Positions 53,061 through 58,605 of a DNA stretch of 64,000 nt are shown here, one piece after another. Made by a program: the position numbers and the translations under genes. This DNA comes from Escherichia coli (lineage in GTDB: Bacteria; Pseudomonadota; Gammaproteobacteria; Enterobacterales; Enterobacteriaceae), in the NCBI RefSeq assembly GCF_024223415.1, contig NZ_CP100500.1, one strand, 5' to 3'. The stretch's first letter is position 1, and each line of letters starts with the position of its first letter. The notes beneath the pieces are model-generated. The model did not search any database. It had not been told where the DNA came from and worked only from the letters and a program-made list of their open reading frames with translations.

Positions 53061-55037
53061 ATGTCTGACGACATGTCTATGGGTTTGCCTTCGTCAGCGG
53101 GCGAACACGGTGTACTACGCTCCATGCAGGAGGTTGCAATGAGCTCCCAGGAAGCCAGCAAGATGCTGCGTACTTACAATATTGCCTGGTGGGGCAATAA
53201 CTACTATGACGTTAACGAGCTGGGCCACATTAGCGTGTGCCCGGACCCGGACGTCCCGGAAGCTCGCGTCGATCTCGCGCAGTTAGTGAAAACTCGTGAA
53301 GCACAGGGTCAGCGTCTGCCTGCACTGTTCTGTTTCCCACAGATCCTGCAGCACCGTTTGCGTTCCATCAACGCCGCGTTTAAACGTGCGCGGGAATCCT
53401 ACGGCTATAACGGCGATTACTTCCTTGTTTATCCGATCAAAGTTAACCAGCACCGTCGCGTGATTGAGTCCCTGATTCATTCGGGCGAACCGCTGGGTCT
53501 GGAAGCCGGTTCCAAAGCCGAGTTGATGGCAGTGCTGGCACATGCTGGCATGACCCGTAGCGTCATCGTCTGCAACGGTTATAAAGACCGCGAATATATC
53601 CGCCTGGCATTAATTGGTGAGAAGATGGGGCACAAGGTCTATCTGGTCATTGAGAAGATGTCAGAAATCGCCATTGTGCTGGATGAAGCAGAACGTCTGA
53701 ATGTCGTTCCTCGTCTGGGCGTGCGTGCACGTCTGGCTTCGCAGGGCTCGGGTAAATGGCAGTCTTCCGGCGGGGAAAAATCGAAGTTCGGCCTGGCTGC
53801 GACTCAGGTACTGCAACTGGTTGAAACGCTGCGTGAAGCTGGGCGTCTCGACAGCCTGCAACTACTGCACTTCCACCTCGGTTCGCAGATGGCGAATATT
53901 CGCGATATCGCCACGGGCGTTCGTGAATCCGCGCGTTTCTATGTGGAACTGCACAAGCTGGGCGTCAATATTCAGTGCTTCGACGTCGGCGGCGGTCTGG
54001 GCGTGGACTATGAAGGCACCCGTTCGCAGTCTGACTGCTCCGTAAACTATGGCCTCAATGAATACGCCAACAATATCATCTGGGCGATTGGTGATGCGTG
54101 TGAAGAAAATGGTCTGCCGCATCCGACGGTAATCACTGAATCGGGGCGTGCAGTGACTGCGCATCACACCGTGCTGGTGTCTAATATCATCGGCGTGGAA
54201 CGTAACGAATACACGGTGCCGACCGCGCCTGCAGAAGATGCGCCGCGCGCGCTGCAAAGCATGTGGGAAACCTGGCAGGAGATGCACGAACCGGGAACTC
54301 GCCGTTCTCTGCGTGAATGGTTACACGACAGTCAGATGGATCTGCACGACATTCATATCGGCTACTCTTCCGGCACCTTTAGCCTGCAAGAACGTGCATG
54401 GGCTGAGCAGCTTTATTTGAGCATGTGCCATGAAGTGCAAAAGCAGCTGGATCCGCAAAACCGTGCTCATCGTCCGATTATCGACGAGCTGCAGGAACGT
54501 ATGGCGGACAAAATGTACGTCAACTTCTCGCTGTTCCAGTCGATGCCGGATGCGTGGGGGATCGACCAGTTGTTCCCGGTTCTGCCGCTGGAAGGGCTGG
54601 ATCAAGTGCCGGAACGCCGCGCTGTGCTGCTGGATATTACCTGTGACTCTGACGGTGCTATCGACCACTATATCGATGGTGATGGTATTGCCACGACAAT
54701 GCCTATGCCGGAGTACGATCCAGAGAATCCGCCGATGCTCGGTTTCTTTATGGTCGGCGCATATCAGGAGATCCTCGGCAACATGCACAACCTGTTCGGT
54801 GATACCGAAGCGGTTGACGTGTTCGTGTTCCCTGACGGTAGTGTCGAAGTGGAACTGTCTGACGAAGGTGATACCGTGGCGGACATGCTGCAATATGTGC
54901 AGCTCGATCCGAAAACGCTGTTAACCCAGTTCCGCGATCAAGTGAAGAAAACCGATCTTGATGCTGAACTGCAACAACAGTTCCTTGAAGAGTTCGAGGC
55001 AGGTTTGTACGGTTATACCTATCTTGAAGATGAATAA
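53061..55037 (+). CDS. speA: biosynthetic arginine decarboxylase
   Basis: 658 aa from [12 protein letters not shown]. Confidence 0.95.
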
Positions 55038-55182
55038 TTAAGATTATTCCGCTGGCGGGTCGATTTATTTACGTAAATCGGCCCGCTTTCTTTTTATATA
55101 TTCTTAAAAATAATTTAGCTGCTTTTCTTATTAAATAATCTCCCTACAATCGCTGCATTAATTAAATGCAGAGGGAACGGTT

Positions 55183-55914
55183 ATGAAAAAATGGAAAGTA
55201 CGTAGCGCGTTGGTGGCATTAATCGTGCTGCTGGCCGGTTGTTCCAGTAATGCGCAGTATAATAGCAGTGCATCGGGCAATGTCGGCACCGCCTGGGGTG
55301 GGGATGTGCACTCAACGGTTCAGGGCGTATCTGCTGAGCGAGCCTGGCGCGATCCGGCGGAGATGATCGTTATTAGTTATTCGACTAATGTTCCTTCCGG
55401 CTACGACCGCGTTTATAGCATTCGTATTAACGAACTGGAATATGCTATTCGCGATAGTAATTTTAATTCTCTACCTATTACGCGTGTTTATGATTCATCC
55501 AATAATGAACCACGCTATATTGTCCATGCCAGAGTCGGAATGAATTATCAATTATATGTCCGTAATTACAGTCGTAACACCAACTACGAGATCGTTGCTA
55601 CGGTTGATGGCCTGGATGTGCTGAACGGCAAGCAAGGTTCGCTGAATAACAACGGCTATATTGTGAATGCCGGAGATTCTTTAGCGATTAAAGGATTCCG
55701 CAAAGATAAACATACCGAAGCGGCTTTTCAGTTCGCCAACGTTGTTGATTCCTACGCAGCCAATTCGGCGCAAGGCGATGTGCGTAATACCGGGGTAATC
55801 GGCTTTGCCGCCTTTGAATTACAAGGCCCGGCGCAAAACGCGCTGCCGCCGTGCTCTGGACAAGCTTTTCCGGCAGATAACAATGGCTATGCGCCGCCAC
55901 CGTGTCGGAAATAG
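55183..55914 (+). CDS. uncharacterised lipoprotein (243 aa) between speA and speB
   Basis: signal peptide with lipobox LLAGCSS; Asn/Tyr-rich mature protein; good RBS (GAGGGAA). Confidence 0.6.
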   Translation: MKKWKVRSALVALIVLLAGCSSNAQYNSSASGNVGTAWGGDVHSTVQGVSAERAWRDPAEMIVISYSTNVPSGYDRVYSIRINELEYAIRDSNFNSLPITRVYDSSNNEPRYIVHARVGMNYQLYVRNYSRNTNYEIVATVDGLDVLNGKQGSLNNNGYIVNAGDSLAIKGFRKDKHTEAAFQFANVVDSYAANSAQGDVRNTGVIGFAAFELQGPAQNALPPCSGQAFPADNNGYAPPPCRK

Positions 55915-56049
55915 CAACCTCGCTTGATGCCTCGCCCATTTAAGGCGATAATTAGCACAAACTTGTGTTTCGCAAATCCAACCCTTCCTCGTCGGGCCTA
56001 ACGACGCGGAAGGGTTTTTTTATATCGACTTTGTAATAGGAGTCCATCC

Positions 56050-56970
56050 ATGAGCACCTTAGGTCATCAATACGATAACTCACTGGTTTCCAACGCCTTT
56101 GGTTTTTTACGCCTGCCGATGAACTTCCAGCCGTATGACAGCGATGCTGACTGGGTGATTACTGGTGTGCCGTTCGATATGGCCACTTCTGGTCGTGCGG
56201 GGGGACGCCACGGTCCGGCAGCTATCCGTCAGGTTTCGACGAATCTGGCCTGGGAACACAACCGCTTCCCGTGGAATTTCGACATGCGTGAGCGTCTGAA
56301 CGTCGTGGACTGTGGTGATCTGGTATATGCTTTCGGCGATGCCCGTGAGATGAGCGAGAAGCTGCAGGCGCACGCCGAGAAGCTGCTGGCTGCCGGTAAG
56401 CGTATGCTCTCCTTCGGTGGTGACCACTTTGTTACGCTGCCGCTGCTGCGTGCTCATGCGAAGCATTTCGGCAAAATGGCGCTGGTACACTTTGACGCCC
56501 ACACCGATACCTACGCGAACGGTTGTGAATTTGACCACGGCACCATGTTCTATACCGCGCCGAAAGAAGGTCTGATCGACCCGAATCATTCCGTGCAGAT
56601 TGGTATTCGTACCGAATTTGATAAAGACAACGGCTTTACCGTGCTGGACGCCTGCCAGGTGAACGATCGCAGCGTGGATGACGTTATCGCCCAGGTGAAA
56701 CAAATTGTGGGTGATATGCCGGTTTACCTGACCTTTGATATCGACTGCCTGGATCCTGCATTTGCGCCGGGAACCGGTACGCCGGTAATTGGCGGTCTGA
56801 CCTCCGATCGCGCTATTAAACTGGTACGCGGCCTGAAAGATCTCAACATCGTTGGGATGGACGTAGTGGAAGTGGCTCCGGCATACGATCAGTCGGAAAT
56901 CACCGCTCTGGCAGCGGCAACGCTGGCGCTGGAAATGCTGTATATTCAGGCGGCGAAAAAGGGCGAGTAA
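56050..56970 (+). CDS. speB: agmatinase
   Basis: 306 aa ureohydrolase; His/Asp manganese ligands (HFDAHTD, DIDCLDP). Confidence 0.95.
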
Positions 56971-57077: not shown

Positions 57078-57119
57078 TGAACTGCACCCCAAATGTTGGA
57101 CATAATCTGACATCTGAAG

Positions 57120-57650
57120 GTGCAGTTTATGAAACATTCATTTGAAGTAAAACTTGCCGCTGTAAATCATTACCTGGCCGGTCATGCAGGCATCATTTCT
57201 ACGGCAAAACTCTTTCAACTTTCTCACACCAGCCTCTCACACTGGATTAATCTTTTTCTTCTTCACGGTCCTCAGGCACTGGATTGCAGACACAAGCGTA
57301 GCTATTCTCCTGAAGATAAACTTTGCGTGGTTCTTTATGCTCTCGGGCATTCTGAGTCTCTACCCCGGGTAGCTGCCCGGTTTAACATTCCCAGCCACAA
57401 CATGGTTAAAAACTGGATAAAAGGCTACCGCAAATCTGGTAATGAGGCCTTTATCAGGCGCAGGAAGGAGAAAAGCATGACCCGTTCTGATGATACCCAT
57501 GAAAACGAGGCAAACATGACGCCGGAAGAGATGAAGAATGAGCTGCGTTATCTTCGCGCAGAAAATGCATATCTGAAAGCCATGCAGGAGCATCTCCTGG
57601 AAAAAAAGCGCCAGGAGCTGGAGAAAAAACGAAAGTCATCCAGAGCCTGA
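57120..57650 (+). CDS. IS3-family transposase ORFA (HTH/leucine-zipper)
   Basis: 176 aa; contains A-AAA-AAG -1 frameshift heptamer near 57602..57608. Confidence 0.8.
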   Translation: MQFMKHSFEVKLAAVNHYLAGHAGIISTAKLFQLSHTSLSHWINLFLLHGPQALDCRHKRSYSPEDKLCVVLYALGHSESLPRVAARFNIPSHNMVKNWIKGYRKSGNEAFIRRRKEKSMTRSDDTHENEANMTPEEMKNELRYLRAENAYLKAMQEHLLEKKRQELEKKRKSSRA

Positions 57651-57754
57651 AGTGCGGACACTGCCAGTCTGACCTGTTAAAGGCTGCAGGGCTGGCCAGA
57701 AGCACGCTGTACTACCAGCTGTCACTGCAGAAGGCTAAGGACAAGTATGCTGAT

Positions 57755-58605
<851 letters not shown>

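Follow-up and report, generated by a model that had tools for sequence, protein, structure and literature searches.

Outer-membrane lipoproteins that are processed by Lgt, LspA and Lnt and sorted by LolCDE, LolA and LolB share with the protein described here, which we call X, an n-region, an h-region, a LAG/C lipobox with an invariant cysteine, a residue other than aspartate at position +2 and a flexible linker ahead of a folded domain. Lipidation of X is predicted, and X differs from these proteins in a mature domain that matches no Pfam or NCBIfam model. Among the systems nearest to X may also be the MATH/TRAF-like and Ig-like β-sandwich domains that bind peptides, as in the MATH domain of SPOP and the TRAF-like domain of USP7/HAUSP. 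Uncharacterised proteins of jumbo phages (EVB91_083 of Rhizobium phage RHph_I1_18, gp564 of Sinorhizobium phage Phosso and a protein of Agrobacterium phage Atu_ph07) and the viral protein BFVD A0A7S5RDU0 share the core motifs of X, namely G..Y.I...N, V.(T/S)VDG..VLDGK, GY, GW/GFR, F.F, SY and N.GV(I/L). The phage homologues were found by tblastn with E values of 4e-11 to 8e-6. Unlike X, the phage proteins lack a signal peptide and lipobox and are permuted, with a 'G(T/V)G.G…' segment after the core and not before it; this holds for the Rhizobium and Sinorhizobium proteins (locus L094, 2489..3214, and locus L095, 2453..3304), whereas Atu_ph07 is known here from its matching core region only. 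At the level of the locus, genome comparisons of EDL933 and Sakai are said to have defined the strain-specific segments of O157 versus K-12 as 'O-islands' and 'S-loops'. The X locus is like these in being a short stretch of O157:H7 DNA that is missing from K-12 and holds one gene of unknown function (its tag in Sakai, deduced from adjacent tags, is probably ECs3813). It differs in its polarity, which is loss in the K-12 lineage and not gain in O157, and in the 60-bp replacement that the K-12 allele carries.

We analysed a stretch of 64,000 nucleotides of Escherichia coli DNA (the window; contig NZ_CP100500.1 of assembly GCF_024223415.1), in which X lies between speA and speB. Both neighbours are named after RefSeq entries for the O157:H7 and K-12-type regions and for strain SCU-316, whose sequence here is 100% identical. 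speA, which encodes the biosynthetic arginine decarboxylase, lies at 53061..55037 of the plus strand and bears this name in the RefSeq entries for the SCU-316, O157 and K-12 regions, and speB, which encodes agmatinase, is an open reading frame at 56050..56970 of the same strand that RefSeq likewise annotates. For speA, the list of open reading frames gives an earlier TTG start at 53049; 5′ of it (52307..53060) are short genes that identical genomes list as yqgD, yqgG and yqgB, the last for an acid stress response protein. The gap between speA and speB measures 1012 bp, with 145 bp 5′ and 135 bp 3′ of X. X itself is an open reading frame on the plus strand (55183..55914) that starts with ATG, begins MKKWKVRSALVALIVLLAGCSSN and encodes 243 amino acids.

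Terminator-like hairpins flank the gene on both sides. After speA, a 15-pair stem (55054..55087) followed by TTCTTTTTAT makes up an intrinsic-terminator-like hairpin with a T-tract (55054..55097, plus strand), which is kept in Klebsiella and Salmonella. A candidate −10 element for X, (C)TACAAT, can be read at 55145..55150 (plus strand) and is kept as CCTACAAT in Salmonella and as CCGTACACT in Klebsiella. A consensus scan called no full or good sigma-70 promoter 5′ of X, so we only infer that X has a promoter of its own. On the other side, a strong terminator-like hairpin with a U7 tract (55980..56023, plus strand) follows the stop codon of X by 66 nt and ends some 26 nt short of the speB ATG. 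Its folding energy is −31.5 kcal/mol (z = −4.2), none of 200 shuffled sequences was equally stable, and its sequence does not differ between the window, O157 and K-12 and hardly differs in Klebsiella. This hairpin probably terminates X and, in K-12, speA. With such a hairpin on each flank, X appears to form its own monocistronic transcription unit outside any speA–speB message; co-transcription in a speA–speB operon found no support, as the hairpins part X from both genes.

A promoter scan placed a sigma-70 promoter-like site, TTGATG-N17-GATAAT, 5′ of speB at 55924..55952 (plus strand). Its hexamers and their spacing are kept in Klebsiella and in the K-12-type allele, where the site reads TTGAAT-N17-GATAAT. 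The site sits 5′ of the very stable hairpin, and both are kept in K-12 and Klebsiella. The region from 55924 to 56049 could be a leader or attenuator arrangement, or the terminator of the upstream gene could overlap the 5′ region of speB. A search of the intergenic regions against Rfam matched no RNA family.

The N terminus of X reads as a lipoprotein signal peptide (amino acids 1–19; 55183..55239, plus strand), with a basic n-region, MKKWKVR, that holds four basic residues and a hydrophobic h-region, SALVALIVLL. It ends in the lipobox LLAG/C, which places the putative lipid-attachment cysteine, Cys20, at codon 55240..55242 (plus strand). The lipobox residues L-A-G-C20 fit the pattern [LVI][ASTVI][GAS]C, equivalent N termini are found across 56 homologues, and the Cys20 column is invariant in their alignment. 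Residues +2 and +3 are both serine, and the aspartate at +2 that acts as an inner-membrane retention signal is absent. Asparagine makes up 9.9% and tyrosine 5.8% of the residues. The original prediction had described a 243-residue lipoprotein rich in Asn and Tyr, with a lipobox LLAGCSS, in a gap of about 1 kb, and this description proved right in every detail.

Beyond the signal peptide, X consists of an all-β core (residues ~33–213) and a conserved proline-rich tail, AFPADxxGYAPPP, flanked by two cysteines. The 56-member alignment has 29 invariant columns, Cys20 among them, and the motifs GTxWG, YxLxxxN, E(I/V)VxTVDGLDVxxG, GY, GFR, AxF and Y-A, with AFPxxxxxYAPPP in the tail. An AlphaFold2 model built from this alignment (mean pLDDT 81.9, pTM 0.73) predicts the core to be all-β, with 132 residues above a pLDDT of 90; residues 21–32 are modelled as a disordered linker and the tail, residues 214–243, with low confidence. 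The tail is conserved in sequence despite this low confidence, and the alignment has two cysteines bracketing it in enterics, which suggests a loop closed by a disulfide in these proteins. No internal duplication was detected in X (hhalign probability 0.2%). By the Nei–Gojobori method, dN/dS is 0.04–0.13 against other Escherichia and about 0.07–0.10 against Salmonella, Klebsiella and Citrobacter, at which distance dS is saturated. X is under purifying selection. A protein 100% identical to X is recorded on more than 1000 contigs, always under the name 'hypothetical protein', 'uncharacterized protein' or 'lipoprotein'; RefSeq names it lipoprotein, membrane protein or hypothetical protein. Given these records, the invariant Cys20 and the dN/dS of 0.04–0.13, X is a real gene and not a chance open reading frame.

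Salmonella, Klebsiella, Citrobacter, Kluyvera and Raoultella are among the genera with homologues of the same length, at 53–75% identity to X. More distant ones, at 36–45% identity, were found in Providencia, Proteus, Gilliamella, Neisseria, Kingella and Pseudomonas aeruginosa PA7, and also in Ralstonia, Variovorax and other Comamonadaceae, Paracoccus and Inquilinus. Taxa missing from our list of 80 homologue loci were not counted as lacking the gene; Salmonella enterica has X and yet is not on the list. To size the family, we ran a profile search of 1.84 billion representative sequences. With a cut-off of E ≤ 1e-3 it puts the family at no fewer than 4220 clusters (50% identity), of which 3270 also pass E ≤ 1e-10. 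The family takes the form of lipoproteins in Alpha-, Beta- and Gammaproteobacteria, of permuted secreted proteins and of the signal-less proteins of jumbo phages. Some members have long linkers rich in alanine and proline, and others (P0230 and P0242) are circular permutants in which the 'LGTxYGE…' segment has moved from the N terminus to a place between the core and the AFPxxxYAPPP tail, right next to the latter. In fold comparisons, the predicted structure of the viral protein BFVD A0A7S5RDU0 matched X with a Foldseek E value of 4.7e-8 and a TM score of 0.49, and several giant-virus proteins gave weaker matches. A homology search started from a phage homologue found no domain fusions in the phage branch.

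Family and structure libraries did not recognize X. In Pfam-A 2025, nothing scored above threshold, and the best match, DUF7537, reached 12.9 bits against a cut-off of 31.7 bits and covered the signal peptide only, as did all matches in NCBIfam 20.0. Ten distant relatives and all 56 members of the alignment, compared with the family libraries, gave no consistent family and only signal-peptide noise. A profile search of the PDB returned a single chance-level match, and X resembled no solved structure significantly, either in sequence or in fold. We found no experiment on the X protein in the literature. X is thus an annotated yet uncharacterised lipoprotein of no described family.

What such a protein might do can be taken further than our preferred reading of a general binding or scaffold role. 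X could be the enterobacterial member of a large unrecognised family of β-domains (at least 4220 clusters) with a specific envelope activity, such as neutralising an enzyme that acts in the periplasm or recognising a cell-wall ligand; it would have been missed because K-12 and BL21 lost the gene, and the unrelated 60-bp filler of K-12 would be a record of import or repair and not of a plain deletion. We regard this combination as possible and would bet against it.

A narrower proposal, which we judge unlikely, is that X is a periplasmic lipoprotein of the inhibitor or immunity type that binds an incoming envelope-acting enzyme, for example a peptidoglycan hydrolase or the effector of a competitor. 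Many type VI immunity proteins, and the known inhibitors of lysozyme too, are lipoproteins or β-proteins of the periplasm, and X would fit this pattern as a small, stand-alone β-sandwich predicted to be anchored in the outer membrane, with no catalytic signature, that is dispensable and has been lost repeatedly. In Variovorax and its relatives (Comamonadaceae), moreover, the gene order is hisD, X, a gene for a small secreted protein, and hisC, and the small protein is present in 25 of the 28 his loci (locus L006, 6824..7171; locus L078, 5679..6059; and 23 more). It has a match to Rap1a immunity proteins, but this match (E 2e-4) stays below the Pfam threshold, at 22.2 bits against a cut-off of 27.7 bits, and is confined to one clade. 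X is also strongly conserved (dN/dS ~0.07), sits at a fixed housekeeping locus and has no effector or secretion-system genes nearby, unlike typical immunity genes, which evolve fast. Searches of X against PADLOC 2.0 came back empty and those against PHROGs v4 yielded chance-level signal-peptide matches only, its structure matched none of MliC, PliG and the Tsi-type proteins, and the phage homologues have no signal peptides.

The genomic neighbourhood offers a separate set of clues. Among 87 loci with X or a homologue, speA and/or speB is adjacent in 19, all of them in Enterobacteriaceae, hisD and hisC flank the gene in 28 (Comamonadaceae), and 40 have neither context. Every enteric locus that we examined has X beside speA or speB, with the exception of one copy in a second context. 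The 40 loci of neither kind have unrelated neighbours: metJ and an outer-membrane barrel gene (Providencia), recO (Gilliamella), mltG (Neisseria), ahcY (Ralstonia) and, in one Zoogloeaceae genome, clpA. The copy filed under 'Citrobacter sp. 18056' (63% identical; loci L020 and L021, 5001..5729) lies away from speA and speB, so that it must be paralogous or have been relocated; its sequence turns up in a Chryseobacterium assembly as well, where contamination is the probable cause.

These neighbours leave little room for the idea that X belongs to the arginine decarboxylase and agmatinase pathway, as an envelope partner of SpeA or in the handling of polyamines, with its position reflecting shared function. 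The adjacency to speA and speB is indeed stable across Enterobacteriaceae, as the 19 of 87 loci attest, but no association with polyamine genes extends beyond these close relatives: outside the Enterobacteriaceae, a homologue never adjoins either gene and is found instead at the his operon, metJ, recO, mltG, ahcY or clpA. Within the family, the terminator-like hairpins part X from both neighbours, an island parts it from speB in Salmonella, and K-12 and BL21, which make putrescine via SpeA and SpeB, do so without X. We rate a polyamine link as slightly less probable still than an immunity role. The context differs from lineage to lineage (spe, his, metJ, recO, mltG and others) and is therefore uninformative for function; X behaves as a stand-alone unit between housekeeping genes, and its varied surroundings lend no support to a polyamine role.

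Insertions are frequent in the interval from speA to tkt, a hot spot. In Salmonella an island of several genes lies between X and speB (a GntR regulator, mannitol dehydrogenase and others; locus L005, 5733..~10700), E. coli IAI1 has the dga operon for a D-glucosaminate PTS between speB and loiP (locus L093, 11328..18644), and in SCU-316 an IS1 lies between speA and X (locus L003, 6285..6982). The window itself carries an IS3-family element between speB and loiP (57078..58509; IS1397 in the identical SCU-316 sequence), with transposase open reading frames at 57120..57650 and 57755..58477 and a target duplication of 3–4 bp relative to O157:H7.

We compared the speA–speB interval across E. coli by megablast of window positions 54900–56200 against 5426 complete genomes. 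The whole interval with X is present in 3542 of them (65%). Where the gene is missing, the match is limited to the flanks in speA and speB, or 28% of the query length, and a reciprocal query found the K-12-type junction to be contiguous in 1867 of the 5426 genomes (34%). The few genomes that remain have IS-disrupted or partial X loci. X is absent from K-12 and BL21(DE3) and present in O157:H7 and IAI1. In the K-12-type genome, 137 bp separate the speA stop codon from the speB start, with no gene between. The original prediction had taken speA and speB to be nearly adjacent in K-12, which is borne out, and would have fallen had K-12 carried the same gene there. It had offered X as either a strain-variable accessory gene or a gene lost from K-12, and both turn out to be true: the first within E. 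coli, where 3542 genomes with X stand against 1867 with the K-12-type junction, and the second because the same gene lies next to speA in sister genera and other Escherichia.

The gene-less junction carries a 60-nt spacer specific to K-12-type genomes, and a 67-nt query over this spacer matched exactly the same 1867 genomes, in one copy each; in 1791 genomes the identity was at least 99%. It was undetected in all other complete E. coli genomes, even with 11-nt words and E ≤ 1. E. coli thus has two alleles at speA–speB, and since the spacer query retrieves precisely the junction genomes, the gene-less allele is of single origin. Truncated X alleles also occur: frameshifted forms (P0025, P0050) of 174 amino acids in E. 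coli (a cluster of 448 sequences) and of 187 amino acids in Salmonella (132 sequences). Natural loss from a third of E. coli, together with the frameshifted alleles in E. coli and Salmonella, shows X to be dispensable.

Allele comparison defines the replaced segment as 935 bp (55038..55972) that comprise the speA terminator, X and the 58-bp spacer behind it, in place of which K-12-type E. coli have 60 bp, GTCCTGTGTTACTTGAATCCGCTTAATTTAGCGGTGATAATCCGCCACAATTTATTGTGA (locus L001, 3139..3198). The K-12 allele is not a clean deletion. The 60 bp align weakly with the normal spacer (36 identical positions, a result that 88 of 5000 shuffled sequences equal) and are less similar to the normal E. coli spacer than the spacer of Klebsiella is. 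The promoter-like TTGAAT-N17-GATAAT persists in them, and its distance to the conserved hairpin is unchanged. A comparison with both strands of the replaced 935-bp segment yielded no convincing similarity, and none of the 5426 complete E. coli genomes has a second copy. Around the junction, speA and speB of K-12 differ from the window to an ordinary extent, at 43 of 1977 and 27 of 998 positions. A single deletion would be an incomplete description of the event, as it leaves the 60-bp filler unaccounted for; the filler may have been imported from an unsampled donor or may have come with a deletion as filler DNA. Strain OkiPb01695 was considered as an intermediate haplotype and rejected, since its sequence is of the ordinary window type.

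At least nine enterobacterial genera, and other species of Escherichia besides, have their genes arranged as speA–X–speB or speA–X. X lies directly after speA in E. whittamii, in two cryptic Escherichia lineages and in Salmonella, Klebsiella, Citrobacter and Kluyvera, as well as in Kosakonia, Phytobacter, Intestinirhabdus, Entomohabitans and an Enterobacter sp.; in Salmonella, X is next to speA and the island then separates it from speB. In E. albertii, X lies directly before speB, on a contig that ends inside X and so reveals only the X–speB side. The 58-bp spacer 3′ of X is nearly unchanged from E. coli to E. albertii, and identity of X is 95% within Escherichia and 58–75% in other genera. 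The 1-kb gap contains neither mobility genes nor boundary repeats. X was found on no true plasmid, the 12 'plasmid' matches being chromosomes or chromids, and in no enterobacterial phage. X is vertically inherited and ancestral in the Enterobacteriaceae, and a single loss removed it from the lineage to which K-12 and BL21 belong. From the conserved synteny, the stable spacer, the lack of mobility genes and the lack of plasmid and phage copies, it follows that the compact speA–speB layout of K-12 is the derived state.

The opposite polarity, with X as a horizontally acquired mini-island and K-12 as the ancestral form, is already largely refuted, and we think it very improbable. It could appeal to base composition, as X has a GC content of 48.8% and a GC3 of 47.5% against 54–55% and 61–62% in speA and speB, to the variable presence of the gene within E. 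coli and to the insertions that gather around speA and speB (IS1, IS1397, the dga operon and the Salmonella island). An islet of this kind would be expected to spread sporadically with mobility genes or boundary repeats, and neither these nor copies on true plasmids or enterobacterial phages accompany X, which holds the same position in Salmonella, Klebsiella, Citrobacter, Kluyvera, Kosakonia, Phytobacter, Intestinirhabdus, E. albertii, E. whittamii and cryptic Escherichia. Its divergence follows that of the species, and the spacer of the gene-bearing allele is near-identical across Escherichia species, with the K-12 spacer as the outlier. That X is a decaying, non-functional remnant whose pseudogenisation the K-12 loss completed has the frameshifted alleles of some E. 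coli and Salmonella lineages (P0025, P0050) and the IS-disrupted or partial locus of a few genomes in its favour, but the full-length 243-residue protein is kept from E. coli to Klebsiella at a dN/dS of 0.04–0.13 in a large family with 29 invariant columns, and we give this reading, refuted already for the allele of the window, practically no credence.

Taken as a whole, the best explanation is that X is an ancestral gene, lost once, that forms a unit separate from speA and speB and encodes an outer-membrane lipoprotein with a binding or scaffold role and no link to polyamines; we put the probability of this at about 0.8. The signal peptide would lead the precursor to cleavage at the L-A-G-C lipobox and lipidation of Cys20, and the serine at +2 would permit Lol sorting to the inner leaflet of the outer membrane, so that X, judging from its N-terminal sequence, would be anchored there facing the periplasm. 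A short flexible linker (amino acids 21–32) would join the lipid anchor to an all-β domain some 180 residues long; behind this domain comes the conserved proline-rich tail, which is probably a disulfide loop in enterics. The β-domain, in which positions with Trp, Tyr, Arg, Asp, Glu and Asn are conserved, may bind or scaffold some envelope ligand. We infer that X is a non-enzymatic binding or scaffold protein of the envelope, dispensable and not needed for polyamine synthesis. In about one-third of E. coli, K-12 and BL21(DE3) included, a single event exchanged the speA terminator, X and the downstream spacer (935 bp) for 60 bp that retain a promoter-like site for speB.

The majority of E. coli, pathogens and commensals alike, carry X (65% of the complete genomes; O157:H7 and IAI1 are examples), as do Salmonella, Klebsiella and Citrobacter. 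Both laboratory workhorses lack it, which may explain why so strongly conserved an envelope protein has no name, Pfam family or phenotype. X neatly exemplifies the 'non-K-12 y-ome', and its interest, which is modest, comes from the size of an unrecognised family, from the absence of the gene from standard laboratory strains and from the 60-bp replacement in K-12. Because a natural knock-out and a wild type exist within one species, comparative and allelic-exchange work is straightforward. In K-12, the 'speAB' arrangement of the textbooks is derived, and this matters when the regulation of speB is extrapolated from that strain to other enterics.
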